A stretch of DNA of 64,000 nt. It comes from an uncultured Gammaproteobacteria bacterium. Its GTDB lineage: Bacteria; Patescibacteriota; Microgenomatia; Levybacterales; GWA1-39-11. Positions within the stretch are counted from its first letter, which is position 1, and every line of letters starts with the position of its first letter. The notes beneath the pieces are model-generated. The model saw nothing but the letters and a program-made list of their open reading frames with translations. It was not told where the DNA came from and ran no database searches. The DNA lies in the NCBI GenBank assembly GCA_964627245.1, contig CAZVGS010000003.1, forward strand, positions 47,551 to 111,550, written 5' to 3'. The position numbers and the translations under genes are program-made. Below, one piece after another: positions 6,446-55,088 of the stretch.

Positions 6446-7243
6446 ATGATACATTTTGCGAACGTATCCAAACAATACTACTCTGATCTTGCTCTTGATG
6501 GGCTAACTTTTACTATTGATAAAGGGGATTTCGTGTTTTTAGTCGGCCCGACAGGCAGCGGAAAAACAACAATATTTAGGTTAATAATTAGAGATCTTCT
6601 TCCAACAGATGGTAAAATCACAATAGGAGAAATTGACCTCAAAAAGCTTCCGGGTAAGAAAGTTAGGCAGCTACGAAGAAATGTGGGGGTAATTTTTCAA
6701 GACCTCAAGTTGCTGCAGGATAGAACCGTTGGTGAAAACGTAATGCTGCCACTACAATTTTCGGGGGTAAAAGAAAAAGATGCGATGGAGCGTGCGCATG
6801 AAGTATTGGAAAGTGTTGGGCTTAAAGATGCTTTTAACAAATTCCCGCTACAGCTTTCAGGTGGAGAACGTCAAAGGGTAGCCATTGCCCGCGCTTTAGT
6901 TTTTGACCCTGAAGTGATTTTAGCCGATGAACCTACCGGGAATTTAGACCTTGTTACGAGTATGCAAATACTTGGTCTTTTAGATGAAATAAATAAAAAA
7001 GGTACAACTATATTTATGGCTACACACAATGATAGGATAATAGACACAACACAAAAGAGGGTATTGGTGCTGGATAAAGGAAAACTTAAAGAAGATAGAA
7101 AGAAAAAGGGTGAAGCCATTTCTCGCAAAAATGAGTACCATAGTCAGAGTGCCTCTCATTCCATAAAACCAAAGGAGGAAGAAAGGAAAGAAGAGAAAAA
7201 GCCTAGCAAAGACACTATCAAGCTAGAAGATCTAAAACAGTAA
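6446..7243 (+). CDS. ftsE: cell division ATP-binding protein FtsE with a Lys/Glu-rich C-terminal tail
   Basis: Walker A GPTGSGKTT, ABC signature LSGGERQRVAIARAL, Walker B ILADEPTGNLD. Directly followed by ftsX. About 40 extra low-complexity residues (KEDRKKKGE...EEERKEEKK) at the C-terminus. Confidence 0.9.
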   Translation: MIHFANVSKQYYSDLALDGLTFTIDKGDFVFLVGPTGSGKTTIFRLIIRDLLPTDGKITIGEIDLKKLPGKKVRQLRRNVGVIFQDLKLLQDRTVGENVMLPLQFSGVKEKDAMERAHEVLESVGLKDAFNKFPLQLSGGERQRVAIARALVFDPEVILADEPTGNLDLVTSMQILGLLDEINKKGTTIFMATHNDRIIDTTQKRVLVLDKGKLKEDRKKKGEAISRKNEYHSQSASHSIKPKEEERKEEKKPSKDTIKLEDLKQ

Positions 7244-8123: not shown

Positions 8124-9404
8124 ATGCTGTATACTTTTTCTTCAACAAAAACATCTGCACTCGTTACCGTTTTTGCATTATTTTTTTTATTGTCGGTAAA
8201 AGTTTTTGCGCAAGATCCGACTCCAACTCCTACAACCGCACCTACCTCAGTTAATTCAAATAGTAATATATCTGATTGTTCTAGCAATAATATTAGTGTC
8301 GCTGATTGTCCTTCCTATCTTCAGAAAAAATTATCAGAATTGCAAGGACAGGATAAGACCTTATCATCGCAAATCGCAATTGCTGATAATCAGATAAAAC
8401 TTACAGAAGCAAAGATTGCAAAAACCGAAGATGAAATAGATGCACTAACAGATGACATTGATATAACCAAGACAAAAATTTCAAGTTCTGAAGGAACCCT
8501 GGAACAAACTTCATTTGCATTTATAGGAAGAGCCAAGGCGGTGTATCAAGTCGGTTCCGTCAGCCCTTGGCAAGTTTTGTTGACATCAAACACTCTGGAC
8601 AATTTTTTCACCAGACTAAAATATTTAAAAATTGTTCAGCTTTTCGATAAACGAAATATTTATGCGGCTGAGCAAGCAAAGGTTAATTATAAAAATCAAC
8701 AGGATATTTTAGAAGATAAAAAAACCCAACAGGAACAGTTGAGTGTAAAATTGCAAGATTATACAAATCAGTTAAATGAAGATAAAGAGTCTAAAAAGAA
8801 ATTGTTGGCCGAAACTAAGGGAAGTGAAGCAACATACCAAAAGTTATTGGCTGCTGCAAAAGCGCAATTAGAAGGGTTTAGCAACTTTGCAATAACACAA
8901 GGAGGAGCAACATTATTATCGGGTCAAACTTCTTGTGATGATTGGGGATGCTATTACAATCAAAGAGATTCACAATGGGGAAGCCAATCTCTCAATGGAA
9001 CACAATACACTTTAGCAAGCGACGGATGCTTAGTAACTGCAATGGCAATGGTTTATACGCATTATGGAAATAGAGGCGTTAATCCAATAACAATAAACTC
9101 AAATTCTGGTAATTTTGCATCTTATTACCCTGCATATTTGCTCAAGCGAATTTCTGCAGAAGGAAGAACGGCTGAAAGAGTTTGGACAGATATCGACAAT
9201 ACTCTTTCATCGGGAGACCCTGTAGTAGTTGGTATTTCTTATGATGGAGGAGGGATTGCCGATCACTTTGTGGTATTTATTAGTGGATCTGGTGGTAACT
9301 ATACGATGCATGACCCCTTTACCCCAAATGGCAAAGGTATATCTTTTAATGAACGGTATCCGGGAGTAAGAATTGTGGAATACGAAAAAGTAGTTTTCCT
9401 CTAG
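8124..9404 (+). CDS. secreted coiled-coil protein with C-terminal papain-fold (CHAP / NlpC-P60-like) cysteine peptidase domain; PcsB-like FtsEX-associated peptidoglycan hydrolase
   Basis: Signal peptide, PT-rich linker, about 200 aa predicted coiled coil, then a Cys/His domain (SDGCLVTAMAMVY ... GDPVVVGISYDGGGIADHFVVFISGSGGNYTMHDP). Start is 3 nt after the ftsX stop, matching the PcsB/EnvC context. Confidence 0.65.
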   Translation: MLYTFSSTKTSALVTVFALFFLLSVKVFAQDPTPTPTTAPTSVNSNSNISDCSSNNISVADCPSYLQKKLSELQGQDKTLSSQIAIADNQIKLTEAKIAKTEDEIDALTDDIDITKTKISSSEGTLEQTSFAFIGRAKAVYQVGSVSPWQVLLTSNTLDNFFTRLKYLKIVQLFDKRNIYAAEQAKVNYKNQQDILEDKKTQQEQLSVKLQDYTNQLNEDKESKKKLLAETKGSEATYQKLLAAAKAQLEGFSNFAITQGGATLLSGQTSCDDWGCYYNQRDSQWGSQSLNGTQYTLASDGCLVTAMAMVYTHYGNRGVNPITINSNSGNFASYYPAYLLKRISAEGRTAERVWTDIDNTLSSGDPVVVGISYDGGGIADHFVVFISGSGGNYTMHDPFTPNGKGISFNERYPGVRIVEYEKVVFL

Positions 9405-41841: not shown

Positions 41842-43002
41842 ATGGATAAAAAACTGATAGTATTACTGCTGGTCGTATTCATAGACCTCATAGGTTTTGG
41901 TATAGTGATACCGATTTTACCGACCGTAATTTCTCACATGGGAGGTGGAGCTCTTTTGGTTGGAGCGGTAATTGCTATCTTTTCGTTATTTCAATTCCTC
42001 TTTTCACCTATTTTGGGGAGGTTATCTGATAAGTACGGCAGAAGACCAATTCTATTTATAAGTTCTTTAATCAACGCTTTTTCATATTTTCTAATTTTCT
42101 TGTCTCAGAGCATTTGGATAATAATTTTAGGCAGAATGATTGCGGGAATAGGAAGTGCTAATCTATCAGTTGCCCAAGCCTATATTGCAGATACGTCTGA
42201 GTCGCACGAAAGAACAAAAAGAATGGCATTGATAGGGGCAGCATTTGGGTTAGGATTTATAGTCGGACCTCTCTTGGGGGGAGTCGTTTCAACTAGGTTT
42301 GGGATTTCTTATGCATTTTTAATACCTGCTGTACTATCATTTATTAATTCAATTCTTATTTATCTTATCCTTCCGGAGTCAAAAAAAGTTCTTCAAAAAA
42401 ATGTAAAAATCCAACTTTTTAGTCTCAAAGTTACTAAGGAAGTATTACGGCCAAAGAATATGTCCTTCCTGCTTTTTCTTTTCTTTTTTGCAAATTTGTC
42501 TCTTGCACTCGTCATTGGAGTTTTTCCCCTATATTCTCATGAAAGATATGGATGGAATGAAGAGCAGAATGGATATTATTTCGGCCTAATCGGTATAGGC
42601 TCCTTTATCACGCAGATATATATAATAGGGCAATTATTAAAAAGATTTAATGAAGCAAAGATTGTTAGAATTGCACTTCTTATATTCGGACTTGCAGTTA
42701 CAATGGTTGGTCTTGTCCCTCTTGGCTGGATGGCTCTTGTTGTTGGGCCATTTACAGCAGTCGGGTTTGGCATGGTTAATGTCGGAGTGCAGTCTCTTAT
42801 TTCATTGGAATCAAAAGCGGAAGAGCAAGGGATTGTCCTTGGGGTTGCCCAGTCTTTCGGATCGATGGCTCGTGTTTTGGGGCCTCTTATTGGCGGTTTG
42901 TTGGCATCATTCCATCTGAATCTTCCCTATTTGGTTTCGGGAGGTTTGGCTATAGTAATTCTCTTCTACAGCCGAAGCTATCTTAAGCATATGAAAAAAT
43001 AG
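41842..43002 (+). CDS. MFS transporter (drug/H+ antiporter-like)
   Basis: 12 TM helices. MFS motif A GRLSDKYGRRP. Start is at the internal Met (MDKKLIVLLL); the upstream part of the ORF-track version overlaps the divergent gene. Confidence 0.8.
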   Translation: MDKKLIVLLLVVFIDLIGFGIVIPILPTVISHMGGGALLVGAVIAIFSLFQFLFSPILGRLSDKYGRRPILFISSLINAFSYFLIFLSQSIWIIILGRMIAGIGSANLSVAQAYIADTSESHERTKRMALIGAAFGLGFIVGPLLGGVVSTRFGISYAFLIPAVLSFINSILIYLILPESKKVLQKNVKIQLFSLKVTKEVLRPKNMSFLLFLFFFANLSLALVIGVFPLYSHERYGWNEEQNGYYFGLIGIGSFITQIYIIGQLLKRFNEAKIVRIALLIFGLAVTMVGLVPLGWMALVVGPFTAVGFGMVNVGVQSLISLESKAEEQGIVLGVAQSFGSMARVLGPLIGGLLASFHLNLPYLVSGGLAIVILFYSRSYLKHMKK

Positions 43003-43005
43003 AAG

Positions 43006-43506
43006 TTATTTGATGTATAAAAAGACACCGTTATCGGATTTTTTTTCTTTCCAATTAGGAAATTGTAAATGGTTACTGACAACCTTAGCGCCCGGCTTTA
43101 ATTCTTTCAGAAGTTTTTTCTCAAGTCTCTTCATCATATGTGGCACTCCCCAGACGGTTATTAAGTCGAACTCCCCAAGATTTTCTCTCCAATAATTTTT
43201 TAGTAAAATTCTTCCATTCGATTTGCTCTTCTTTAATTTATATCTTGAAATTAAGACTAAAAACGGATTGATTTCATATCCGTATGCTTTAAGTCCTCTT
43301 TTGGAAGCTTCGTTCACAATCCTTCCGTCTCCAGACCCAAGATCCAGGAATTTTTTCCCTTTCGTAGTATTTAATAGCTTTAACATAGTATTTATTTTGC
43401 TTTTAGAAATAGCCGCAAATGGTGCACCTCGGAACATGGAATAAGATAAGAGTAAAATTACGTATACGAGTATCAACAGTAGGATTATACTTATAGCAAT
43501 ATCCAT
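43006..43506 (-). CDS. class I SAM-dependent methyltransferase with N-terminal TM anchor
   Basis: Motif I KFLDLGSGDGRIV and motif II/post-I AYGYEINPFLV. 166 aa. Confidence 0.7.
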   Translation of the reverse strand: MDIAISIILLLILVYVILLLSYSMFRGAPFAAISKSKINTMLKLLNTTKGKKFLDLGSGDGRIVNEASKRGLKAYGYEINPFLVLISRYKLKKSKSNGRILLKNYWRENLGEFDLITVWGVPHMMKRLEKKLLKELKPGAKVVSNHLQFPNWKEKKSDNGVFLYIK

Positions 43507-44066
43507 AGATCCGCGGGGTATAGTTTTTTTTCGCTGGGAACAAAATAAAGTGCAACTGAATTAATGCAATATATTTTTTCTGTAAGTTGAGGCTTATCTT
43601 CAGTAATCTGTCCCAGATGTCCACTACACTTGTCCAAAATTTCGATCCTTTTGTATCCGAGCTTGTACTCACCCTTTAGGATAAGAGTATCCTCAGAGAT
43701 TGGATTCCAATAACTTGGCCAACCGGCTCCGGTTTCATATTTTTGCTCGGAACTGAAAAAAGGCTGGTCACAGCCTACGCTAAAGTAGGTTTTTTCCCTT
43801 TTTTTATTAAGCAAACTGCCTGTGAAAGGGTATTTAGTTCCAGCATTTCTTAATATTTCATATTGCTGGGAAGTTAAAAGTTTTTTCCATTCATTATCGC
43901 TCTTAGTTTTGGCATTATTTATTATTCCACGGCTCGTCTGCTCATTGCCTGAGTTACTTGCGTCGGAATTCATGAAAAATAGTGAGAGAAATATAAAGAA
44001 AATCAGAATTACATGTAGAATTTTTCCAAAACTAAAACGATGCATAAATCGATTATAGCAAAGCAA
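43491..44066 (-). CDS. msrB: peptide methionine-(R)-S-oxide reductase MsrB, secreted or membrane-anchored
   Basis: SelR signature FSVGCDQPFFSSEQKYETGAGWPSYW...CSGHLGQITEDKP (catalytic Cys, HLGH-like motif). N-terminal TM/signal segment. Confidence 0.8.
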   Translation of the reverse strand: MLCYNRFMHRFSFGKILHVILIFFIFLSLFFMNSDASNSGNEQTSRGIINNAKTKSDNEWKKLLTSQQYEILRNAGTKYPFTGSLLNKKREKTYFSVGCDQPFFSSEQKYETGAGWPSYWNPISEDTLILKGEYKLGYKRIEILDKCSGHLGQITEDKPQLTEKIYCINSVALYFVPSEKKLYPADLWILL

Positions 44067-44084
44067 CTTCGTTTGGGAGAATTA

Positions 44085-44477
44085 CTATTCGGAGAGCGCT
44101 TGGATGATTTGATCTTTATACTCTTCAAAAATAGATGAAGCATCATCAGATAAAGTTATTTTATCCAGTTCATCAATTCTATAGAACTCAAGTCTCCACC
44201 CTTGTTTTCTACTGATTGAATTTACATTTTCATCAGTCATCCTCGTGTAAAAAACGCTTGAACTATCTTCCTCACCTGCAAGCGGAATTAGAGGAAGTTC
44301 TTGATTATTAACATTAGATGATAGATTCATCTCTTTCTTTAGTGCATAAATAAGCTTGGATTTTTTGTTATTTGTAACTCTAAAAAAATCCCACTTATTT
44401 TCGCTTGGATTAAGAATTACTTCCTTCGAAAAAAGTAATATTTTGTTTTTATAGGTTAATATTATTGAAGAGTTCAT
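44085..44477 (-). CDS. hypothetical protein
   Basis: 130-aa ORF between the ATP-grasp gene and msrB, within a tight minus-strand operon. Confidence 0.4.
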   Translation of the reverse strand: MNSSIILTYKNKILLFSKEVILNPSENKWDFFRVTNNKKSKLIYALKKEMNLSSNVNNQELPLIPLAGEEDSSSVFYTRMTDENVNSISRKQGWRLEFYRIDELDKITLSDDASSIFEEYKDQIIQALSE

Positions 44478-44495
44478 ATTCAGTTTTTTACAATA

Positions 44496-45626
44496 TCAAT
44501 AAAATTGGTGTTGTTTGGGAAAAAAGTGTTCTTTATTGGTATTTGATCTTACGCCTAGTTCATCAATGACTGCAAGAATCAACCTTTTTGTATTTTCCAT
44601 GTCGCCTTCTATAAGTGAATCCCAGGTAACTCCAGGATGACTATTCCCTTCCATTAGGTAGATGTTGCCGTTATTGCTTATGATAAAGTCTAAAGCTAGA
44701 AGTGATTTTCTGCTTTTTATAGCTTTGAGTATTTCAATGGCCATTTCTTTTATTCCTGGAGGAATATCATTTTCCTCTATGTATTTTATGTCTCCTCCTT
44801 GGTGTGTGTTACATCTAAAATCTCCTCTTGCGGAAGTTCTTATGTAAGACTGGATTAAATTTTGTCCGAGATAGATTAGTCGAATGTCAATAAATCCGGA
44901 ATAATTATTGTTGGCATAGCCAGTTTTGAATTTTGCAAAAGGCTGGAGTATGAATGAAAGTTCTTTGTTGTCGCGCAGTATTTTTTTGATTAAACGTTTT
45001 CTGTTATTTTTCTCAGTGCAAAATATATTATTCCCACCTGCACCAAATCTGTTTTTAACAACAATTCTTTTGGAAAAATCTTTGCTGTCAGGATGTTTAT
45101 CAACCAGAATTGCAAGCGCGTCAACAGCTTTTTTAATTGAAGTTTCACTATCATTTCTAATAGTTACGGTCGGAATGGAGAATTTAGTTAATATATCATG
45201 AGTTTTTTGCTTGTCCGAGAACAATCTTGATATCCGCACCGAGTTAAATGGTTCAATACCGTCAGTGCCAAACAATTCACTATGTCTTTTTTCTTGAACA
45301 TCGTTAATTGGAGAAAATTTATCAAATATTAGCGGTGCATAACAATTTTTCTTAACTTTTATCCATTTTTTATTTCTAAATTCCCAGCAAGACTTGAATA
45401 TCCCATTTTTTGTTAAGTCTCTTGAGGTTGTTAATCCGGCTTTAAGTTTTTTATTTTTGCATTGTTCAAGAAAAAAAGCATAACATTCATTATATTTTTC
45501 TCTTTCAGATTTTTTCGAAAAGGGATAGTTTGCATGATTTTCTTTCGAAGAAGCACTTGTTGCAACGCCATCTGTATATACAATTAAAACGTTGTACATT
45601 CTAGGTTTTTTCATTTTATTCAACAA
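44496..45626 (-). CDS. ATP-grasp fold ligase (RimK / glutathione-synthetase-like), substrate unknown
   Basis: C-terminal ATP-grasp motifs KNRFGAGGNNIF, FILQPF, ALDFIISNNGNIYLMEGNSHPG. Its start overlaps the helicase gene end by 11 nt. Confidence 0.6.
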   Translation of the reverse strand: MLNKMKKPRMYNVLIVYTDGVATSASSKENHANYPFSKKSEREKYNECYAFFLEQCKNKKLKAGLTTSRDLTKNGIFKSCWEFRNKKWIKVKKNCYAPLIFDKFSPINDVQEKRHSELFGTDGIEPFNSVRISRLFSDKQKTHDILTKFSIPTVTIRNDSETSIKKAVDALAILVDKHPDSKDFSKRIVVKNRFGAGGNNIFCTEKNNRKRLIKKILRDNKELSFILQPFAKFKTGYANNNYSGFIDIRLIYLGQNLIQSYIRTSARGDFRCNTHQGGDIKYIEENDIPPGIKEMAIEILKAIKSRKSLLALDFIISNNGNIYLMEGNSHPGVTWDSLIEGDMENTKRLILAVIDELGVRSNTNKEHFFPKQHQFY

Positions 45627-46779
45627 AGGTTAGCGCTACGCCTTTTTTTCCGGCGCGTCCGGTTCTGCCAATTCTATGGATATAATCCTCATAATTTGTA
45701 GGAGCGTCGTAATTTATGACATGCGTAACATCATCTATATCAAGCCCTCTTGATGCAACGTCGGTCGCGATCAATATTTGAATTTTATTGCTTTTGAACT
45801 CATCAATGGCTCTCTGTCTTTGATTTTGTGTCTTATTACCATGTATGGCTAGGGTTCTAAAGCCCCGAGTTAGTAAATTTTTTGATAATTTTTCCATTCC
45901 CCACTTGGTTCTTCCAAAGATAATAACCTTGTTAAATTCGGGTCTTATCAAAAGGTCGTGCAAGACTTCAATTTTTTGTTTTCCCCCATTAATCTTTACT
46001 ATATCTTGCTCAACGCTATCAGCAGTATCGGTTTTTTTGACAGATACAGTGATGGGATTTGTCACAAAGGCTTTAAGTATTTCCTCGGTTTTTCTATCAA
46101 CGGTTGCCGAAAAGAAGAGCGACTGACGTTTTTTGGGAAGAAGTGCCACAATGTGTTTTATGTCATGTATAAAGCCAATATCAACCATGCGATCAACCTC
46201 ATCAAGAACGACGTTTTGAAATAGCGATAAGTTTATGTTTCTTCTTTGTATTAAATCTTTTAAGCGTCCTGGTGTTCCTATGACAAAATGAGGATTGTGT
46301 CTGAGAGCATAGGTTTGCCTTTTAATATTTGCACCGCCAATAGTTGTTACCATTTCAAGCCCTGTTCCTTTTGCAAAGATCTTAAATTCATCACCTATCT
46401 GAACAGCCAATTCTCTTGTTGGAACCACAATTAAGACTCTTTGAGATTTGTCAAGATAGGACTTATTTATTAGCGATACTAAAAATGCAGCCGTTTTACC
46501 CGTCCCGGTATTTGCCATGCCTATCAGATCACGTCCGTTTAATATATGAGGAATTGCTTGTTCCTGTATTTTAGTAGGTTTTGTATAGCCATGTTCTAAA
46601 ATATTTCTTTTTAGCTTAGGATCAAGCAAAAAATCATCAAAATTCAATTCAACATTTTCTTCCTGCACTAAAGACTGATCTTCGGCTCTTTTAATAAATA
46701 GAGTTGGATCGAGTTTTTTTTCAGGACGTCTAACGTTCCTTTGAAATCGGTTATTATTATTTCTGTAAAAATTATTCAT
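45616..46779 (-). CDS. DEAD-box ATP-dependent RNA helicase
   Basis: Q motif TKIQEQAIP, I ANTGTGKT, Ia PTRELA, II DEVD, III SAT, and VI HRIGRTGRAG. Confidence 0.9.
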   Translation of the reverse strand: MNNFYRNNNNRFQRNVRRPEKKLDPTLFIKRAEDQSLVQEENVELNFDDFLLDPKLKRNILEHGYTKPTKIQEQAIPHILNGRDLIGMANTGTGKTAAFLVSLINKSYLDKSQRVLIVVPTRELAVQIGDEFKIFAKGTGLEMVTTIGGANIKRQTYALRHNPHFVIGTPGRLKDLIQRRNINLSLFQNVVLDEVDRMVDIGFIHDIKHIVALLPKKRQSLFFSATVDRKTEEILKAFVTNPITVSVKKTDTADSVEQDIVKINGGKQKIEVLHDLLIRPEFNKVIIFGRTKWGMEKLSKNLLTRGFRTLAIHGNKTQNQRQRAIDEFKSNKIQILIATDVASRGLDIDDVTHVINYDAPTNYEDYIHRIGRTGRAGKKGVALTFVE

Positions 46780-47545
46780 ACTTTCTCTAAAGCAGAAAAA
46801 GCGCTTAAAGTATATTGGTTTTATGAAGAGGAGATTGATATCTCTTGTCCCCTTCTATATTTGAAAATGTTAGGGGAGAAGATGCTCATGCGGGCAATCT
46901 TCGACATTATAAACTAATGCTTAAAAAGCTTTTAGGCTTTGAGCAGTTCTATTAATTAAAACTGCAGTAACCTATTATATCATAGTATTTGAGCAATTGA
47001 TACTATAGGGTATTTTTCGAGGTTAATTCTGAAAATTTTAAAAAATCCGTAACAGGGTTAAACCATCTAATGGGAAGTATGCGAGCATCCTACCGGAGAG
47101 GAAAAGCTGGAGGCTTAACTTTTGGGAATTTTATTCCCACCATTAACCGGCCATTTTGCCTATACCGATTAGAAAAGATTAGGGCATTAAATCGTGAAAT
47201 AAATTTGATGTCCTTTTTCGTAGTCTTTAATAAGATATTGGTTAAAACCGATTGGAAGAAAGAAGGCTGTATATTAGAAACATTGGCCAAAATATTGATT
47301 TTAATATTCGCCATAAGGCACCTCACTGGTTGTTGTTTGGATATAGTAAAAAAGTGATCCGATAAGACTTTGCCCAAATACGTTTCTTCCGCCTCCGCCG
47401 ATTTTTTCATGAACGATTTTTAACCTGCTTTTTTATCCTTAATTAAAATATTCGCCTACGATTTTCAGTTTTAAGCTTTTGTGAATGCATCGATAAGATT
47501 ATTATTGCAAGCAGAGCACTACTACTAAAGTGGTATAATTAATTT

Positions 47546-47773
47546 ATGGATTTGCAGACGTCTTATTATGTGATGGGAATAATATTCATGAGTGTCATGT
47601 TTGTGCTCATGATAGCTCTTGTTGTTTTGGTTTTCTATATAAAAGGTAAGATAAATGATATGCAAAAAAATATTGAGGAAAAGATAGAGGTAGTCACATC
47701 ATTCGGGCAAATGGGAGGAAAAGCAGTCGAGAAATTTAAAGAATTTTTAGAAAATAAGAATAAGAAAAATTAA
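47546..47773 (+). CDS. hypothetical small membrane protein
   Basis: 75 aa with one TM helix (IIFMSVMFVLMIALVVLVFYI). Lies within the putative mobile-element remnant. Confidence 0.35.
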   Translation: MDLQTSYYVMGIIFMSVMFVLMIALVVLVFYIKGKINDMQKNIEEKIEVVTSFGQMGGKAVEKFKEFLENKNKKN

Positions 47774-48360
47774 TTATTTAGATTAAGCTTGCTGGAGTCT
47801 TTTTTTGCGAAGTATTCAAACTCGTCTATGTATCGTATATATCCATTTTGTAAAATCTTCTCTACTTCGTAGCCGGGATAAACTTGCGCAAAAATATCGG
47901 GCTGTAGTTTTAAAACGTATTCATAATCCCACTTATTATGACCTGGCCAAATTAAGCGTAGATGTTCAAAAAATCGTGGAGGTTCATATGGAAGCTTGAT
48001 TTTTCCACGTGCAATAAATTTATCGTTCTTGCCCAGCAAGTCTATATATTTTCGTTCTGTAAAATAAGGAACAATTCCAGACCACACTATTCCAACTGTA
48101 GCATCAGGTTTTGTTATTTTTTCAATTGATTTGGCCATTCTTAGTTGATTGGCATTTTCTGACCATGTAGCAGGAGCGGTATACCCCAATGTTTGAGGAA
48201 GCATGTTCTCAGACATTGTAGAAAAACTCAGAAAAGACAAAGTGATAATTATCATAAAAAGCATAGAACCCTTCTTTTGATGAGCCTTTTTAACGTTTGA
48301 CATCAAGTAGTTAAATATTTTGCCGGATGAAAGTACATAGAGAATAAAAAAGGCTGGCAT
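47770..48360 (-). CDS. hypothetical secreted protein
   Basis: 196 aa with a signal-like N-terminus. It occupies the position where a recombinase catalytic domain would be expected. Confidence 0.45.
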   Translation of the reverse strand: MPAFFILYVLSSGKIFNYLMSNVKKAHQKKGSMLFMIIITLSFLSFSTMSENMLPQTLGYTAPATWSENANQLRMAKSIEKITKPDATVGIVWSGIVPYFTERKYIDLLGKNDKFIARGKIKLPYEPPRFFEHLRLIWPGHNKWDYEYVLKLQPDIFAQVYPGYEVEKILQNGYIRYIDEFEYFAKKDSSKLNLNN

Positions 48361-48396
48361 GACGATAGTTAAGTACCTATTGGATGGAGACCGGGA

Positions 48397-49209
48397 ATGC
48401 CTCCAATAGGATACTACAATAGAGCTTTCAATGGAGTAAAAGACATTATTATTGATCCCGAAAGAGGTTTTATTGTAGCCGAAATGTTTGAGCGAGTAGC
48501 AAGAAATGGTGATAGCGGAAGAACACTTAAGAAGTGGCTTGATACTTGCTTAACAACCAGAGCAGGAAAGAAAGTGACACTTAGTCAGATTTATCTTATG
48601 CTCAAGAATCCCTTTTACTATGGTGAGTTTGAATATCCAATCGGAAGTGGTAACTGGTATAAAGGTGCTCATAAACCATTAGTTACTAAAGAACTATTTG
48701 ACCAGGTACAGAAACAGTTAATAGTCCCTAAAAAAGCAAAATGGGGGAGCAAATCGTTTACCTTTAAAGAGCTTTTCAAATGCGCAAGCTGTGGATCACT
48801 GGTCATCGGTGAAGATAGGTACAGAAAGCGAAAATATGGAGAACCACGCTATCACATTTACTATCACTGTACGAGGCAAAAAAAGTATGGTTGCCCGGAA
48901 CCATATCTCACAGAAGACAAGCTCGTAAAACAAATATTACGATACATAAACTTCATGTATATGGCGCATCCGCAGATATTTACTTTTAAAGAATTTGTGA
49001 AAGAAAGTATGGAGGCGTATAAGAAAATGCGAGATGAAATTTTATGGGCGCAAGACATTAACCCTGAAAACAAGCCTGTTCACTTTATGGATTACGCAAA
49101 CTACATTTTCAGAAATGGAACGATGCTGGAAAAACGAGAAGTAACGAATATATTAAATCGGCAACTCTATATCCACAACGAAACTGTTACCTCAGTACCG
49201 TTAATTTAG
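48397..49209 (+). pseudogene. large serine recombinase, N-terminally truncated (recombinase domain plus zinc-ribbon only; resolvase catalytic domain absent)
   Basis: Starts at PPIGYYNRAF (the PYGY-like motif that normally follows the catalytic domain). Recombinase-domain pattern LKKWLDT...LMLKNPFYYGEF, and zinc-ribbon cysteines CASCGS...YYHC...C. An in-frame stop lies immediately upstream (48370-48372). Confidence 0.6.
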
Positions 49210-49211
49210 AA

Positions 49212-49781
49212 CTATTTCGATCGCTTCTTTTGCAACTTTTTCCAAGAAACAGCAACAACTCCAAGAACTAAAAGGCCACCAGTTACTAACATAAAATTTA
49301 TATTAGGATTTGACGACTTTCTTTCACTACCTTCGGAGGATGATAAGTTCTGAGTATTCGCACTCGGAGAATATCCCGTACCTAGTACAGCTAAATCTTC
49401 TGAAGTAAGTGCATCGGGTACTTCTTTATTTCCCATACAGGCATTTGTTTTGAGATTACCTGAGTCCATTTTGAGAAAAAGGAGATATTTTTTATCTTCC
49501 TCAAACGAAAAATCAACAGATATTACTGCTCCTGGAGATTCTTGTCCGCTTACCTGAATCTGAGAAGGTCCATCGTGGCCTTTAAAGTACCGCTCGACAT
49601 TAACTATAGCTGATGTATCCGATACGCTAGATACACGGCCTAACACAATTATATCTGCCTGTTGTTTATATTCCGAAAACGATATAGCAGGAGCGCAAGA
49701 AGCCAATGCAACATGAGGGGTAAAGGATAAGAATGAAAAAAGTGCAATTATAAATGTAAATAGTAAATTTCTGATCAGCAT
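49212..49781 (-). CDS. secreted protein with TIMP/NTR-like N-terminal domain and C-terminal TM anchor
   Basis: Signal peptide ending ...ALA-SCAPAIS. The mature N-terminal Cys, then ADIIVLGRVSSV...YFKG, resembles a TIMP N-domain (C-x-C/P...AD.VI.a.v...FKG). C-terminal hydrophobic anchor plus KKLQKKRSK. Confidence 0.4.
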   Translation of the reverse strand: MLIRNLLFTFIIALFSFLSFTPHVALASCAPAISFSEYKQQADIIVLGRVSSVSDTSAIVNVERYFKGHDGPSQIQVSGQESPGAVISVDFSFEEDKKYLLFLKMDSGNLKTNACMGNKEVPDALTSEDLAVLGTGYSPSANTQNLSSSEGSERKSSNPNINFMLVTGGLLVLGVVAVSWKKLQKKRSK

Positions 49782-49979
49782 ATTTATAAGAGAATTATAG
49801 CAAAAATTAGCTGTTCGAATCCTAATTCTAGGGATAAGTAGGACATATGTGAACCTTAGCTTTATTATTGAGAACTTGAGGGTGTTTTGTCGGTCCGAAT
49901 GTTTCCCGTCTTGAAGGGGCTTTTAGCAAGCCCCCTCAAGCTAAATAGGGAATACGGTCACCTTAGGTGCCCGTCTCAG

Positions 49980-50050
49980 CTGGCGATCAGGGATTCGAAC
50001 CCCAATACCGTCCTCCAGAGGGACGTGTCCTACCATTAGACGAATCGCCA
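49980..50050 (-). tRNA. tRNA-Gln (anticodon CUG)
   Basis: The reverse complement folds as a cloverleaf: acceptor UGGCGAU/AUCGCCA, D-arm, anticodon stem CGUCC/GGACG with loop CUCUGGA (anticodon CUG), and T-loop UUCGAAU. CCA is not encoded. Confidence 0.75.
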
Positions 50051-50131
50051 AAATCAAAACATTTTAGTGTTTTGAGCTCTTTATTTTACTAAATTAAGCC
50101 CAAAATAGCCAATCCATGTTATACTCAAGCA

Positions 50132-50605
50132 ATGATTACTTGTGAATTTGAGGATGGTGGAAAAGGAAATTTACGTCATGTTGTGGTCCATTGCTTGTGC
50201 TTGAAGGGTAACAAAATACTTTTGGTCAAAAGAGCGCAAGGGATATTAGAAGCTGGGAAATGGGGATTTCCTGGAGGATTTTTGGACCAAGGGGAGGATG
50301 TTAAAAAGTGCGCTGTTAGAGAACTCATGGAAGAGACAGGATATGAAGGTACGGTCGACAAATTGTTTAGGATAAATTCAGGAGAGCGGAAAAATGACCA
50401 GGGTAGAAATAATGTAGCCTTTGAAATGTTGATGAAAATAGGAGACAAAACAGGTAAGCCGGATTGGGAGCAAACAGCGGTTGAATGGATAGACCTGGAG
50501 GATCTTGCTGAGGAAAAAATGGCATTTGATCACTACATGACAATTTTAGATCTGAAAAAATACCTGAAAGAAGGCGGAGAGCTTCCCGCACTCTACCCAC
50601 AATAA
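50132..50605 (+). CDS. NUDIX hydrolase
   Basis: Nudix box GGFLDQGEDVKKCAVRELMEETGY. Confidence 0.75.
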   Translation: MITCEFEDGGKGNLRHVVVHCLCLKGNKILLVKRAQGILEAGKWGFPGGFLDQGEDVKKCAVRELMEETGYEGTVDKLFRINSGERKNDQGRNNVAFEMLMKIGDKTGKPDWEQTAVEWIDLEDLAEEKMAFDHYMTILDLKKYLKEGGELPALYPQ

Positions 50606-50646
50606 AATCTGTTGACATATACCCTCCTAGGGTATACACTGGGATA

Positions 50647-50919
50647 ATGAAATCCCACTACGACGATGAAAAAGTTAAAGCTCAGAAGAGACTAAATATC
50701 ATAAAGGGCCAGTTAAACGGACTTTCAAAAATGATTGATGATGATATTTATTGTGTTGACATCTTAAATCAAAGCCTCGCTATCCAAAACTCTCTTAAGA
50801 GCCTTGACGCTGTTTTGTTTGAAAGGCACTTATCAACTCATGTAGGACATCAATTCCACAACGAGCCGGAAAAAGCGACTGAGGAGCTTGTTACCCTCTT
50901 CAAAAGGATTAACAAATAA
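50647..50919 (+). CDS. csoR: CsoR/RcnR family metal-sensing transcriptional repressor (copper-sensing)
   Basis: RLNIIKGQLNGLSKMIDDDIYCVDILNQSLAIQNSL...HLSTHV contains the conserved Cys/His metal ligands of the DUF156/CsoR family. Confidence 0.8.
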   Translation: MKSHYDDEKVKAQKRLNIIKGQLNGLSKMIDDDIYCVDILNQSLAIQNSLKSLDAVLFERHLSTHVGHQFHNEPEKATEELVTLFKRINK

Positions 50920-50921
50920 AT

Positions 50922-53234
50922 ATGATTAATAAAGCCTATCAAGTTAAGGGGATGCATTGTGCAAGCTGCAGCTCTATCATCACAAAAAAACTAAAAAAAC
51001 TTCAAAATATTGAAAGTTGCGATGTCAATTTTGCAACAGAAAAAGCTAACGTATCTTTCGACGAAAAGAAGGTTACGACTACGGACTTAAATAACCAGAT
51101 CGAAAAATTGGGCTATACGCTTGTCGAAGAGTCTCATGCTGGTCATGGCATGCCAACAAGTATAGGTGCACATAGTGAAAAAAGCAGCGCCGATCATTCA
51201 GAACACTTGGGTTTTAGTCTCTCAAAAGAGGCAAAAATAAAGGAACTTCAGCAATTTAAGGCTAAAATCAACTTAGTGCTGCCTATCTCTCTGCTTGTTT
51301 TTGCAACTATGATTTGGGATATCGCCTCAAAATTCTTCCCAGCAAGTATTCCTGCAATACCTATTCCAATGCAAATTTTAAACACCATATATTTCATATT
51401 AGCCTCTATTTTTATGTTTTGGATCGGACAGCCATATTTAAAGGCGCTGGTTAGGTTTGCAAAGTACAGGGTTGCAAATATGGATTTACTTGTCGGGATC
51501 GGTACATTTACAGCATACATTTACAGTAGTGTTTTGTTGCTTTTTCCGAGAGTTACATCATATTTCAATCTTCCAGAACATACTTACTTTGATGTGACTA
51601 TTGTTGTAATCGGATTTATAACTCTTGGGAAATATTTAGAAAGTCGCTCAAAACTTAAGACAGGTGAAGCAATTGAAAAATTGCTGGGTCTTCAAGCCAA
51701 AAGTGCCTTAGTTGTGAGAGATGGAAAAGAAATTGACATACCAATTGATGAAGTTGTTGTTGGCGATATTATTCGGGTCAAGCCGGGAGGCAAAATTCCA
51801 GTTGATGGGGAAATAATTGACGGCGCAACTTCCATAGACGAGTCCATGATCAATGGAGAGCCTGTGCCTGTTGATAAAAAAAAGGGAGATATTGTTATAG
51901 GTTCTACAATAAATAAACAAGGCAGTATTTTATTTAAGGCTAGTAAGGTTGGATCTGAGACGATGCTTTCTCAGATAGTGAGAATGGTTGAAGAGTCTCA
52001 AGGATCAAAAGCTGAAATCCAAAATTTGGCGGACAAGGCTTCATCAATATTTATCCCATCTGTACTCGTAATTGCAGTTTTATCTTTTGTTGCTTGGATG
52101 ACAGTTGGAGTATTTCTCTTGGGTTTTTCTCAGGCATTTTCTTTTGCATTATTATCTTTTGTTGGAGTGCTTGTTATCGCATGTCCTTGCGCTTTAGGAC
52201 TTGCGACGCCAACTGCAATAATTGTTGGGGTAGGCAAAGGAGCAGAGCATGGAATACTTATTAAAAATGCGCAAAGTCTTGAGAAGCTTTGCAAAGTAAA
52301 TATGGTCATTTTTGATAAAACAGGGACTCTGACGCACGGAAAGCCGGTAGTTACAGATGTTATTCCGGTTGGTTCATCGATATCTCATGAAAAAGTCTTA
52401 AATATTGCATCTAGCCTAGAAAGTCAATCATCGCATCCTATTGCCCATGCTGTGATTCGAGAGGCAGAAAAAACTAATATGGATAACTTGAAAGTGAGCC
52501 ATTTTGAGGAAAAAGAAGGAGTAGGGGTTGTTGGTGAAATTGAAGGAACAAGTTTTGCGGTGACAAGGCCTTCTTCAAAAAATAAAAACATATCTGATGT
52601 TATAAATCTTCAATCACAAGGCAAAACAGTAATTTTAGTTAAGAAGGAAGATGAAGTTGTAGGAATAATTGCCATCAGTGACACGGTGAAGCCTGATGTC
52701 AAAAAAGTAATTGAAAGGCTGCATCAAATGAATATTCAAATAGTAATGGTTACGGGAGACAACCAAAAAGCTGCAGAATATATTGCTCAACAATTGGAAA
52801 TTGATACCGTCAAAGCAGAAGTTATGCCGAAAGAGAAATCTAGCATAATTAAGGAATTTCAAAAGATGGGCAATAATGTTGCTATGGTTGGTGATGGTAT
52901 CAATGACGCTCCAGCCCTCACTCAAGCGGATGTAGGTATCGCAATGGCAACAGGAACTGATATTGCGATAGAAAGCGCTGACATAGCTCTGTTAAGCGGT
53001 GACCTATCCAAAATTCCTCAAGCAATCAATCTCTCGAGACTGACTATCCGCACAGTCAAGCAAAATCTTTTCTGGGCATTTATTTACAATATAATTGGAA
53101 TTCCGCTAGCAGCTGGAGTGTTTTATCCGATTTTCGGAATATTTCTCAATCCAATTTTTGCCGGATTTGCGATGGCAATGTCTTCTGTGTCTGTAGTTAG
53201 TAATTCATTATTATTAAAGAGAGTTAAAATTTAA
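50922..53234 (+). CDS. copA: copper-translocating P1B-type ATPase
   Basis: N-terminal HMA domain GMHCASCSS, TM CPC motif IACPCALGLATP, DKTGTLT phosphorylation site, and GDGINDAP. A His-rich stretch follows the HMA domain. Confidence 0.92.
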   Translation: MINKAYQVKGMHCASCSSIITKKLKKLQNIESCDVNFATEKANVSFDEKKVTTTDLNNQIEKLGYTLVEESHAGHGMPTSIGAHSEKSSADHSEHLGFSLSKEAKIKELQQFKAKINLVLPISLLVFATMIWDIASKFFPASIPAIPIPMQILNTIYFILASIFMFWIGQPYLKALVRFAKYRVANMDLLVGIGTFTAYIYSSVLLLFPRVTSYFNLPEHTYFDVTIVVIGFITLGKYLESRSKLKTGEAIEKLLGLQAKSALVVRDGKEIDIPIDEVVVGDIIRVKPGGKIPVDGEIIDGATSIDESMINGEPVPVDKKKGDIVIGSTINKQGSILFKASKVGSETMLSQIVRMVEESQGSKAEIQNLADKASSIFIPSVLVIAVLSFVAWMTVGVFLLGFSQAFSFALLSFVGVLVIACPCALGLATPTAIIVGVGKGAEHGILIKNAQSLEKLCKVNMVIFDKTGTLTHGKPVVTDVIPVGSSISHEKVLNIASSLESQSSHPIAHAVIREAEKTNMDNLKVSHFEEKEGVGVVGEIEGTSFAVTRPSSKNKNISDVINLQSQGKTVILVKKEDEVVGIIAISDTVKPDVKKVIERLHQMNIQIVMVTGDNQKAAEYIAQQLEIDTVKAEVMPKEKSSIIKEFQKMGNNVAMVGDGINDAPALTQADVGIAMATGTDIAIESADIALLSGDLSKIPQAINLSRLTIRTVKQNLFWAFIYNIIGIPLAAGVFYPIFGIFLNPIFAGFAMAMSSVSVVSNSLLLKRVKI

Positions 53235-53236
53235 AT

Positions 53237-54253
53237 ATGGAATTGTGGTTAATTTTTATGACAGGTCTGACGGTTGGCGGACTTACATGTCTTGCAGTGC
53301 AAGGTGGTCTTTTGGCTTCGGTTATTGCAGCCCGGGAAAAAGAAGAAGTTAAGAAAGGTATCAATAAGAAGAACGCTTTTCTCCCAACAGTAGTTTTTTT
53401 GTCGACTAAGCTCATCGCCTACACATTACTCGGATTTTTACTTGGTGCTTTTGGTGGTGTTATTAATATTGGTGGGAATGTTCAAATTTTTATGCAGCTT
53501 TTTGCAGGTATTTATATGGTTTTGGTAGCTCTCAATCTTCTTAATATACATCCGATATTTCGCTACGTTATCATACAGCCTCCGCGATTTTTGCTTAGAA
53601 AAGTTAAAAATCAATCCCGTGGTAAAGCAATTTTTTCTCCCGCGCTTCTTGGGGGAATGACTGTTTTTATACCTTGTGGAACCACTCTTGCCATGGAAGC
53701 ATTGGCGATTAGCAGTGCAGATCCTTGGATGGGTGCAGCTATTATGGGTGTATTTGTCTTAGGTACGATGCCTCTTTTCTTTGGTCTTGGCGTTGTTACT
53801 TCCATCCTGGGGGATACTTTTAGAACAAAGTTCTTAAAAGTGGCGGCCATTGCCCTAATATATATAGGAGTAAGTTCGATTAACGGAGCATTTATCGCAT
53901 TAGGCTTTCCGCTAAATTCAAAAGCTGTAATGAATGTTTTTGCTTCGGATGGTAATAGAGGAGTAAATCAAAAAAATGTTTCTAGTGTGTCGCAGATGCA
54001 TGAAATTTATATTTTTGCCAACGGATACTCACCGAATTATATTCGCGTTAACAAGGGGCTACCTGTATCAATAACTCTTATAGGAAAAGGTGCATACAGT
54101 TGTGCTTCTGCATTTAGAATTCCCTCACTTGGAATTAGTAAAAATATGCAGCCTAATGAAAAATATACCTTTACATTTACTCCAAAAAGGGCTGAGCGAA
54201 TAACTTTTACATGCTCTATGGGAATGTATAGTGGAGTAATCGATGTAATATGA
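53237..54253 (+). CDS. membrane permease (DsbD_2 / TauE-like 6-8 TM) fused to C-terminal cupredoxin-like domain; putative copper handling
   Basis: Multi-TM N-terminal region with a TC pair (GGLTCLAVQGG). The C-terminal 95 aa, YSPNYIRVNKGLPVSITLIGKG...FTCSMGMYSGVIDV, follow the cupredoxin_1 pattern with C...M..M ligands. Embedded in the cop operon. Confidence 0.5.
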   Translation: MELWLIFMTGLTVGGLTCLAVQGGLLASVIAAREKEEVKKGINKKNAFLPTVVFLSTKLIAYTLLGFLLGAFGGVINIGGNVQIFMQLFAGIYMVLVALNLLNIHPIFRYVIIQPPRFLLRKVKNQSRGKAIFSPALLGGMTVFIPCGTTLAMEALAISSADPWMGAAIMGVFVLGTMPLFFGLGVVTSILGDTFRTKFLKVAAIALIYIGVSSINGAFIALGFPLNSKAVMNVFASDGNRGVNQKNVSSVSQMHEIYIFANGYSPNYIRVNKGLPVSITLIGKGAYSCASAFRIPSLGISKNMQPNEKYTFTFTPKRAERITFTCSMGMYSGVIDVI

Positions 54254-54477
54254 TTTTAAAGTTAAAAATAACAGGAATGCACTGTGTGTCTTGTGCAATG
54301 AATATAGATTTTGATTTAGAAGATGTTGAGGGGGTAATTTCTTCAAAAACAAGTTATGCAAAAGGGATTACGGAGGTTGAATTCGATAACAAAAAGTTGA
54401 CAATTGACGTAATTAAAAAAGCGATAGAAGAGACAGGATATAGAGGCGAAATTTTTACCGAGGGGGGTGAATTATGA
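54250..54477 (+). CDS. copZ: heavy-metal-associated (HMA) copper chaperone
   Basis: 75 aa with the GMHCVSCAMNI motif (MxCxxC) in a ferredoxin-like HMA fold. Confidence 0.8.
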   Translation: MILKLKITGMHCVSCAMNIDFDLEDVEGVISSKTSYAKGITEVEFDNKKLTIDVIKKAIEETGYRGEIFTEGGEL

Positions 54478-55088
54478 AAGACAACAATATATTTATATAC
54501 ATAATAGTTTCTTTTTTAGCCGGAGGACTGTTGGTTTGGGGAGCAATTAATTTTGGCTCAAATTCGTACGGAAGGAGCATGATGCAATTTCAGAATTCGA
54601 ATAGTTTGAATAGGGTGCGTAATATAGATGCACATTTTATAGAAGAAATGATACCGCATCACGAGGATGCAATAAAGATGTCAAAAATAGCGCTTGAAAA
54701 AGCTTCTCATGAAGAGCTGAGAAATCTTGCTCGGAGCATTATCAAATCTCAAGGAGACGAAATTGATCAGATGACGAGCTGGTATAAAGAATGGTTTGGA
54801 ACGTCCGTGCCTGAGGAGTCTGATGATGACTTGGATAGTATGATGGGGGGAAGAATGGGTATGATGGATGAAGATACTGATTACTCCTCGCTTGTTAACT
54901 CAGAGGAATTTGACAAAAGATTTATTGAGGAGATGATTCCCCATCACCAAATGGCTGTAATGATGGCAAATATGCTTAAAAACAGTACAGAAAGAAATGA
55001 AATGAAGAAATTGGCCGATTCCATAATTACATCACAATCTCAAGAGATTGACCAAATGAGAGAATGGTACAAGAGTTGGGAATATTGA
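54474..55088 (+). CDS. DUF305 domain protein (two repeats), copper-resistance associated
   Basis: Two copies of FIEEMIPHH(E/Q)xA(I/V)xM, typical of DUF305. N-terminal TM helix. Confidence 0.8.
   Translation: MKDNNIFIYIIVSFLAGGLLVWGAINFGSNSYGRSMMQFQNSNSLNRVRNIDAHFIEEMIPHHEDAIKMSKIALEKASHEELRNLARSIIKSQGDEIDQMTSWYKEWFGTSVPEESDDDLDSMMGGRMGMMDEDTDYSSLVNSEEFDKRFIEEMIPHHQMAVMMANMLKNSTERNEMKKLADSIITSQSQEIDQMREWYKSWEY

Follow-up and report, generated by a model that had tools for sequence, protein, structure and literature searches.

A probable genomic-island remnant with a truncated large serine recombinase gene beside tRNA-Gln in a Candidatus Levybacteria genome

The large serine recombinases, exemplified by phiC31, Bxb1, the A118/LI integrase, TP901-1, SprA of SPbeta, XisF and CcrA/B, have a catalytic domain as their defining feature. 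Here we describe a gene of this group that lacks it, located between a DEAD-box RNA helicase gene and a tRNA-Gln(CUG) gene (positions 46780-50050) in a 64-kb stretch of DNA of ~35% G+C, referred to as the window. The remnant resembles its relatives in matching the Recombinase and Zn_ribbon_recom families and positions 162-349 of the XisF and CcrB models (with NCBIfam and PHROG matches as well), and in lying at the end of an element beside the attachment junction. It is unlike them in that the catalytic domain is missing, and it is presumably not a functional member; its family is also short (~441 amino acids; aa) and linked to the 3' end of a tRNA.

Cryptic ('grounded') prophages and decayed islands at tRNA genes are another close parallel. 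As in those, what remains beside the tRNA is an integrase remnant with one accessory gene and one att junction, the mobility genes have been deleted, and a neighboring host gene has been damaged too. The locus differs from them in that no phage genes are found here or in its closest intact relatives, which carry copper-resistance cargo, and in that the recombinase is of the serine type, hence there are no long direct repeats at the ends. Copper- and metal-resistance islands, with CopA, a multicopper oxidase, an HMA chaperone and a CopY/BlaI-type repressor, are matched by the gene set directly upstream of the recombinase in two relatives (L167 and L168; L and P numbers denote comparison loci and proteins), although in the window this cargo is gone.

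We consider it likely that the 1.6 kb from 48379 to 49982 are the tRNA-proximal end of a genomic island, left by one deletion. A large serine recombinase would have integrated the island at the 3' end of tRNA-Gln(CUG) in a genome of Candidatus Levybacteria, a lineage of the candidate phyla radiation (CPR), and the intact order from the tRNA would have been an end block of ~110-170 nucleotides (nt), a gene for a 189-aa protein, a 441-aa recombinase gene converging on the tRNA, and the cargo. A single deletion with no more than 6 nt of overlap at the joint would have taken recombinase codons 1-165, including the catalytic domain with its serine nucleophile, together with the whole cargo, the distal attachment site, and ~330 codons of a host gene for a GT-C glycosyltransferase in divergent orientation. 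This deletion was presumably illegitimate rather than recombinase-mediated, and evolutionarily recent. Because neither a catalytic domain nor a second att site is left, the remnant should be locked, unable to excise or move.

The feature itself is an ordinary decayed island of a familiar kind. Its description corrects the annotation, in that two open reading frames (ORFs) are gene fragments from one deletion and a gap appears to be host regulatory DNA plus a pseudogene; probably one gene of the former island is still in use, and the gain and likely loss of a copper-resistance island at tRNA-Gln are documented in tiny CPR genomes.

The truncated recombinase gene and the probable deletion junction

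A first-pass annotation of the region had described the 270-aa ORF as encoding the recombinase domain and zinc ribbon of a large serine recombinase without the resolvase domain, and the Pfam matches bear this out. Recombinase (PF07508) is matched at residues 25-108 (E 1.8e-12; 47.8 bits against a cut-off of 21.1) and Zn_ribbon_recom (PF13408) at residues 123-185 (E 1.1e-8; 35.8 bits against 25.3), with the CxxC...C...C cysteines of the zinc ribbon intact in the translation; neither the Resolvase catalytic domain (PF00239) nor any other Pfam family was matched above threshold. Among 5.8 billion proteins searched, 820 relatives were recovered, of which the closest are 431-442 aa long, are 85-92% identical, and have Resolvase, Recombinase and Zn_ribbon_recom domains. 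When a full-length homologue (P0001) was compared with the window by tblastn, its residues 166-441 were found at 48379-49206 (90% identity over 276 residues), and residues 1-165 had no counterpart across the 64 kb; nor was a resolvase-domain remnant present in any plus-strand frame upstream of the ORF. Correction of a frameshift, which the first-pass annotation had allowed for, thus cannot restore a full-length gene. The remnant is free of internal stops and frameshifts and is 95% identical to the recombinase of L170.

The breakpoint is exact. DNA homology to L001, L002, L086, L167, L169 and L170 begins at 48378/48379 in all six, and base-by-base comparison shows identity with the intact genes from AT(T)GGATGGAGACC onward, the intact genes reading ...AAATGTAACATGGGATGGAGACCGGGAATGCC at the breakpoint and the window ...GTTAAGTACCTATTGGATGGAGACCGGGAATGCC. 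On the other side of this point lies the 196-aa ORF, which had been taken for a small secreted protein convergent with the recombinase. Instead, it is divergent from the recombinase ORF and encodes the C-terminal third of a GT-C/PMT_2-type membrane glycosyltransferase of ~515-550 aa. An exhaustive HMMER search with the ORF found 1625 relatives, and the query aligns to residues ~330-520 of those that are full length (515-550 aa). One of them, P0126 (544 aa), matches Pfam PMT_2, a mark of GT-C membrane glycosyltransferases, at 29.1 bits (cut-off 26.1). In tblastn comparisons with P0125-P0128, their residues from 308/341 onward were placed at window positions 48384/48378 down to 47788; the glycosyltransferase homology thus runs past the annotated ATG and up to the recombinase homology.

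One deletion fused these two 5'-truncated divergent genes; a deletion rather than an inversion is indicated because the 3' part of the leftward gene is joined to the 3' part of the rightward gene. The glycosyltransferase family was absent from all 80+ recombinase loci examined, and the gene is therefore presumably a host gene and not island cargo. The identical join is present in two Logan assemblies from other runs, L003 (SRR20718480, 12.9 kb) and L004 (ERR2727587), and since the recombinase part of L004 differs from that of the window by one residue, the join is a feature of the population and not a chimera.

Estimates of dN/dS, the ratio of nonsynonymous to synonymous substitution rates (NG86), are 0.12 when the remnant is compared with L170 and 0.07 with L086. 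A three-taxon split assigns 0.13 to the window branch versus 0.04-0.07 in the intact lineages, a value obtainable if ~10% of the window branch was neutral. However, the amino-acid differences are concentrated in the first 45 residues, where they resemble other alleles of the family, and allelic mosaicism explains the raised ratio as well as partial neutrality does; because of this mosaicism, relaxation and continued constraint of the remnant are not separable by dN/dS. We can conclude only that either the deletion is recent on this scale or the remnant is still constrained, a recent deletion being the simpler of the two.

A rival reading is that the truncated recombinase is retained and expressed as a DNA-binding protein, which would occupy att-type sites at tRNA-Gln and hinder the integration or excision of related elements (site immunity). 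The fragment is open over 276 codons with dN/dS of 0.07-0.13 and intact zinc-ribbon cysteines, and it starts at a conserved internal methionine with GGAGA 7 nt upstream; other short members start at the equivalent position, P0107 at MGWRPG and P0102 at MAPLGY. We nevertheless regard such a role as unlikely. A recent deletion predicts the same statistics, in every intact gene both the methionine and GGAGA belong to ordinary coding sequence, and P0102 and P0107 come from 1.2-kb contigs and were possibly cut by the contig ends. A promoter scan of the region gave 13 sites against 11.7 expected, none of them outstanding. Other truncated forms (P0079, P0113 and L169) are broken at different points, which looks like independent decay. 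One further short protein, P0123 (335 aa), was predicted from the public contig L166 (ENA ERZ1079236 k127_950229), positions 1-60 of which open with Illumina adapter sequence (..GTGACTGGAGTTCAGACGTGTGCTCTTCCGATCT); because of this, its N-terminal truncation is artificial.

Intact counterparts, the end block and the tRNA-Gln junction

Related genomes hold the element in intact form, rather than the same gene order without it, as would be expected from the initial interpretation of the locus as an insertion. L086 (4.7 kb) is collinear with window positions 48379-49982 at 86.7% nucleotide identity; its recombinase ORF is intact (445 aa) and is accompanied by the 189-aa gene and the non-coding block. 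Four more loci, L167-L170, were located through homologues of the 189-aa protein; each has the order tRNA-Gln, block, 189-aa gene, recombinase, and its collinearity with the window, at 78.5-88.6% identity, extends from the tRNA (50053) to exactly 48378/9. The next gene after the recombinase in L167, L168 and L169 encodes a P-type ATPase with an HMBD domain (CopA-type). In L170, which has a 441-aa recombinase, the contig ends 75 residues into the next gene, and these residues match the window's CopA. A CopA-type gene lies directly upstream of the recombinase also in L085, L086, L122, L169 and L170.

The full order in L167 and L168 is tRNA-Gln, block, 189-aa gene, 442-aa large serine recombinase, CopA(HMBD), bPH_2, multicopper oxidase and HMA, and L167 additionally encodes a DsbD_2+cupredoxin protein, a DsbA-like thioredoxin, a peptidase M56 and a Penicillinase_R-type repressor. 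The L167 cargo is, on its predicted functions, a copper-resistance island. No virion, packaging or lysis genes were found in the window remnant or in the intact elements L167-L170. We note that in L169 (Microgenomates bacterium OLB22, LLEV01000011.1; 10573-11897 and 11967-14188) the recombinase is split into ORFs of 347 and 84 aa and the CopA gene into ORFs of 476 and 205 aa; this island is apparently an independent case of decay.

In L086 and L167-L170, as in the window, the 189-aa gene has the recombinase stop on one side and the end block on the other. It is evidently the one surviving element-linked gene; of the three ORFs that the first-pass annotation had listed as surviving cargo this one stands, and the other two (the 75-aa and 196-aa ORFs) are not linked to the element. 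Its dN/dS against L086 is 0.27, and it would be the only part of the remnant still doing something. The protein has a LAS|C motif, a conserved core with an invariant C..CMGN, and a C-terminal part consisting of a low-complexity linker, a hydrophobic anchor and a basic tail; all 13 homologues are in Levybacteria/Microgenomates-type records. Searches of Pfam and of PDB sequences gave no match. An AlphaFold model (mean confidence, pLDDT, of 67.9, with ~70-89 across most of the core) was matched by Foldseek to agrin NtA, N-TIMP-1/-2/-3, PCOLCE NTR and C3 C345C with E values of 1e-4 to 1e-3 and template-modeling (TM) scores of ~0.55-0.6 per target. The predicted fold is thus like that of NTR/TIMP-like modules, as is presumably the cysteine directly after the predicted signal-peptide cleavage region, which we take to correspond to that of TIMPs. 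Unlike these modules, it shows only 9-17% identity, has no Pfam TIMP match and only moderate model confidence (pLDDT 68), and carries a C-terminal membrane anchor.

The non-coding end block abuts the 3' end of tRNA-Gln and comprises a family-wide ~110-nt motif on the tRNA side and a clade-specific extension. It is 91% identical to L002 11346-11518, directly after the recombinase stop, and 84% identical to L086; the identity with L002 is above that of the coding sequence (81%). The motif reads AGACGGGCACC..GTGACCGT..CTTGCTAA..ATTCGGACC..ACCCTCAAAA. A profile built from 26 copies of the tRNA-proximal ~110 nt found 55 copies, all 55 in recombinase loci and none in 80 helicase-anchored loci, and in 54 of the 55 the motif is downstream of the recombinase in the same orientation. 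It was not found after tRNA-Gln genes without such a recombinase nearby. The block thus appears to be specific to the element. At 49853-49825 the block has a promoter-like site, TTCACA-17-TAGAAT, directed toward the 189-aa gene. An RNA structure is not supported for the block: RNAalifold found no consensus pairs among the 26 copies, and what preserves two stems chosen by hand is mainly conservation of the sequence and not covariation; the z-score of the single sequence is -3.3 on the tRNA strand. Rfam searches of the gap and the end block, at the gathering cut-off and at E<=10, returned the tRNA only, and an exact 22-mer of the block had no match in IMG/VR.

The tRNA-Gln(CUG) gene is intact and its position was confirmed (Table 1). 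The suggestion that it served as integration target holds, as judged from linkage to the recombinase. In a set of 74 loci encoding a C-terminally complete relative, an opposite-strand, convergent tRNA-Gln lies no more than 1.2 kb from the recombinase stop in 24 and no more than 5 kb away in 33, and L167-L170 have the intact arrangement. Wherever tRNA-Gln is found in these loci it is opposite to the recombinase strand; two loci have tRNA-Asn instead and one has tRNA-Leu, and in two loci the recombinase stop codon touches the tRNA. The tRNA-Gln genes in the helicase-anchored loci are without either a recombinase or the end-block motif.

Homology among elements residing in different flanks (the window, L086 and L002) stops at 49982, and CAGC alone is common with the tRNA 3' end; we infer that strand exchange takes place at or beside this CAGC, the last bases of the tRNA. 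The tRNA 3' end would be an attR-type junction with the element, and the first ~25 nt of the block on the tRNA side are the candidate element-side half-site of the recombinase. The tRNA-side junction is the only such boundary in the window, the other side being the deletion join. Direct repeats of the tRNA 3' end, which the first-pass annotation had suggested looking for as att sites, are not present in 43000-53000. We discarded a likeness of the opening 25 nt of the block to the tRNA half-site (CGGG...TAGG, allowing 4 extra nt), as the TAGG of the tRNA is from a variable T-stem.

In some genomes the recombinase end block is flanked not by tRNA-Gln but by a conserved element of ~95 nt, TTTTTATAGTGTCTCATTTGTCTCATTTAGCCTC..GTGAGACA..GTTATAGGGATAAGAAGGTCCTAGACCG..GCTCAGC, with a promoter-like TATAGT box, which is absent from the window. 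Its 3' end is like the T-arm and acceptor end of a tRNA; it has no Rfam match, and the consensus hairpin is weak and without covariation. The element occurs also without a recombinase nearby, one example being a complete genome of Beckwithbacteria; the L167 copy is located immediately upstream of tRNA-Glu. Junctions without a tRNA in L002 and L086 were considered as attP and rejected, the flank in L002, L108, L112, L130 and L124 being this element, found also in recombinase-free genomes; for that reason these flanks are alternative insertion targets. In L094 two tRNA-Gln(CUG) genes lie 170 nt apart (8137-8208 and 8378-8451) with an end block in between, the first of them touching the recombinase stop, and the end block is present in two copies in L100, L112 and L132. 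These arrangements suggest repeated or tandem insertions at one site.

Host sequences beside the junction and the question of a phage origin

The first-pass annotation had read the whole of 46780-50050 as the scar of a prophage or integrative element, the gap upstream of the helicase included. An integrative element beside tRNA-Gln is indeed indicated, but its homology with intact relatives ends at 48378/9, and the remaining sequence has other explanations. The gap at 46780-47545 does lack a convincing ORF, as had been stated, and has no Rfam match; it is apparently host DNA and not a scar. Its helicase-proximal part looks like the helicase promoter and a ~186-nt leader, on the strength of three matches to the sequence upstream of the L028 helicase, which keep the same order and a similar spacing. 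The boxes ACCCTATAGT and TATGATATAATA recur in L005 and L024, and the closest relatives have 490-650 nt without an ORF upstream of the same helicase. Long leaders are known for cold-shock DEAD-box helicases; this one includes a conserved hairpin-like stretch (TCTCCCC..GGGGA), and the CTCATAAAAC box is common to L028, L005 and L024.

Farther upstream is a pseudogene of a conserved 65-aa small membrane protein. The L028 protein (6955-7152, adjoining the helicase) aligns to the window in two frames, with residues 2-44 at 56% and residues 41-65 at 68% identity; the translation reads KIVHEKIGGGGRNVFGQSLIGSLFYYIQT..* in one frame and ALWRILKSIFWPMFLIYSLLSSNRF* in another (asterisks, stops), and there is no start codon after the upstream stop. 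Homologues of the protein are present also in L005, L017, L019 and L024. Together the helicase features and the pseudogene cover 46780-47015 and 47245-47435, leaving ~230 nt (47016-47242) outside both.

The 75-aa ORF has one transmembrane segment and appears to be an orphan with no link to the element. Its best match is holin_LLH (E 0.002-0.008), below the cut-offs, and no family was above threshold; tblastn found no match in 170 related loci besides the same strain, and none in 50,697 phage records. We note that TGGTATAAT, an extended -10 type box (47531-47548), ends 6 nt before its ATG; if this box is used, the transcript would be leaderless.

That the entire region is a prophage scar, with the gap as eroded phage DNA and the 75-aa and 196-aa ORFs as surviving cargo, is decidedly unlikely. 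All of the parts do lie between the helicase and tRNA-Gln, an interval that in L028 is short (the helicase, the 65-aa gene, one 318-aa ORF and tRNA-Gln(UUG)) and hence variable; the orphan ORF is weakly holin-like, and terminase genes are found beside more distant recombinase relatives. However, the gap is explained by host features kept beside the helicase in L028, L005 and L024, 47770-48384 is a fragment of a widespread ~530-aa glycosyltransferase never seen in recombinase loci, and in the closest intact elements the cargo is copper resistance, with phage genes absent. The virion genes looked for were also missing from two viral-collection contigs (L176 and L177), whose tested ORFs gave no capsid, portal or tail match; helicases and methyltransferases are found there.

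In the wider family, 32-39 of 82 loci have three genes ahead of the recombinase on its strand, for a ParB-N6/N4 methyltransferase, a small terminase-like protein and a large terminase, the last of which matches PHROG 38 (E 8e-76). This cassette, in which the small terminase-like protein is a helix-turn-helix (HTH) protein, lies 1-4 kb upstream of the recombinase in L111, L113, L131, L141, L098, L151 and ~30 others, often with Type ISP restriction enzymes or giant SF1 helicases beside it, and virion genes were not observed there; these loci could equally be satellites, defective phages or defence islands. Full-length relatives match PHROG 95 'integrase' (E 2.5e-60), and nine relatives are on IMG/VR contigs. 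The label 'prophage' is thus not shown for the family, and for the copper-island clade to which the window remnant belongs it is contradicted.

In a survey of mycobacterial integration sites, the attB sites overlapping tRNA genes were all those of tyrosine integrases (PMC8092301), and a limited literature search gave no account of any Patescibacteria clade of serine integrases that targets tRNA-Gln. We tentatively propose, as a possibility that falls short of being probable, a widespread and apparently undescribed Microgenomates/CPR serine-integrase clade that targets the extreme 3' end of tRNA-Gln (occasionally tRNA-Asn, tRNA-Leu or the ~95-nt promoter-bearing element with its tRNA-like 3' end). 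The elements would always end in the ~110-nt module, which replaces the native 3' flank of the tRNA. This module would go beyond a 25-bp half-site and might be a trailer or terminator that keeps the tRNA functional, a site where an accessory factor binds, or an RNA lacking any simple conserved fold. Such a clade with its conserved terminal module, if true, would be useful to those who mine genomes for serine integrases and att sites.

Several points weigh against our interpretation of the locus as an island end cut by one deletion. The att sites are taken from comparisons of junctions, and an empty site was absent among the 80 helicase-anchored loci, where the gene order of Levybacteria is poorly conserved. 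The far (left) end of an intact island was not reached, L167 ending inside or beyond the cargo, and the deletion size, which would be at least about 9 kb, is known by analogy with L167 only. The assignment of the glycosyltransferase to the host follows from its absence in recombinase loci, the dN/dS of the window lineage (0.13) is above that of the intact lineages (0.04-0.07), and the ParB-methylase and the small and large terminases of distant members, together with the nine IMG/VR relatives, leave room for a phage-related ancestry of the recombinase family.

It is extremely improbable that the recombinase is instead split by design in the manner of SSV, with attP inside the gene and the N-terminal half at the far end of a complete element: the break does fall in the linker between the catalytic and recombinase domains, and the window reaches only 15.6 kb rightward, but integrated relatives beside tRNA-Gln have uninterrupted genes of 430-445 aa, the join leads into a truncated glycosyltransferase and not an att-like sequence, no N-terminal fragment is present in the 64 kb, and the Nudix and Lon genes to the right are syntenic host genes in relatives without the recombinase. 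An assembly chimera or sequencing artefact is hardly credible, even though the source is evidently a metagenome-assembled genome (MAG) and a related record, L166, opens with adapter sequence, in view of the same join in the independently assembled L003 and L004.

Layout of the window and neighboring genes

The positions of the features discussed above and of the genes on either side are collected in Table 1.

Table 1. Features of the region around the island remnant, followed by occurrences of the ~95-nt element in other loci.
Feature	Position	Strand	Remarks
DEAD-box RNA helicase gene	45616-46779	minus	
Region without convincing ORF	46780-47545		
Apparent promoter-like boxes and ~186-nt 5' leader of the helicase gene	46780-47015	minus	not part of the element
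38-nt stretch GAAGGGGACAAGAGATAT..CTCATAAAAC	46855-46818	minus	E 2.8e-5 against L028
Box TATGATATAATA	46984-46973	minus	
Box ACCCTATAGT	47011-47002	minus	
Pseudogene of conserved 65-aa small membrane protein	47245-47435	minus	not part of the element
75-aa ORF	47546-47773	plus	
196-aa ORF	47770-48360	minus	
3' fragment (last third) of GT-C/PMT_2-type membrane glycosyltransferase gene	47770-48384	minus	annotated ORF 47770-48360
Deletion junction	48378-48384		glycosyltransferase homology (minus) meets recombinase homology (plus), 0-6 nt overlap
Large serine recombinase gene, codons 166-441 only (recombinase domain, zinc ribbon, C-terminal tail)	48379-49209	plus	ORF from ATG 48397
270-aa recombinase ORF	48397-49209	plus	
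189-aa ORF	49212-49781	minus	predicted signal peptide, Cys after LAS, NTR/TIMP-like OB-fold core, C-terminal membrane anchor
Non-coding end block	49811-49982	minus	abuts tRNA-Gln 3' end
Clade-specific extension of end block	49811-49873		promoter-like site facing 189-aa gene
Family-wide ~110-nt motif	49874-49982		
tRNA-Gln(CUG), intact	49979/80-50050	minus	ARAGORN and Rfam, 53.6 bits
Nudix gene	50132-50605	plus	
~95-nt element in other loci	L002 11514-11672; L108 11381-11534; L112 7855-8003; L130 14020-14139; L167 5409-5530		
~95-nt element, further loci			L012, L015, L038, L054, L092, L105, L145/146, L151

Genes around the DEAD-box helicase have best matches 70-79% identical to Levybacteria MAGs, and these neighbors place the host of the window in Candidatus Levybacteria (Microgenomates, CPR). 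A 50-aa ORF with a TTG start (49887-50039, plus strand) crosses the end block and then runs antisense to tRNA-Gln; we regard it as spurious, since the indels in the block alignment are not multiples of three and its ATG is not conserved.

Between the Nudix and Lon genes lies a copper cluster (50647-55088) encoding a CsoR-type repressor, a CopA ATPase, a DsbD_2+cupredoxin protein and a DUF305 protein. Lon directly follows Nudix in L005 and L061, the nearest relatives, with no copper cluster between them, and because of this the 4.5-kb cluster is an insertion across tRNA-Gln from the remnant. With their counterparts in the recombinase-linked copper island of L167 the genes of the cluster share only 39-46% identity, so it was acquired separately from the island, and it may account for the tolerated loss of the island cargo.

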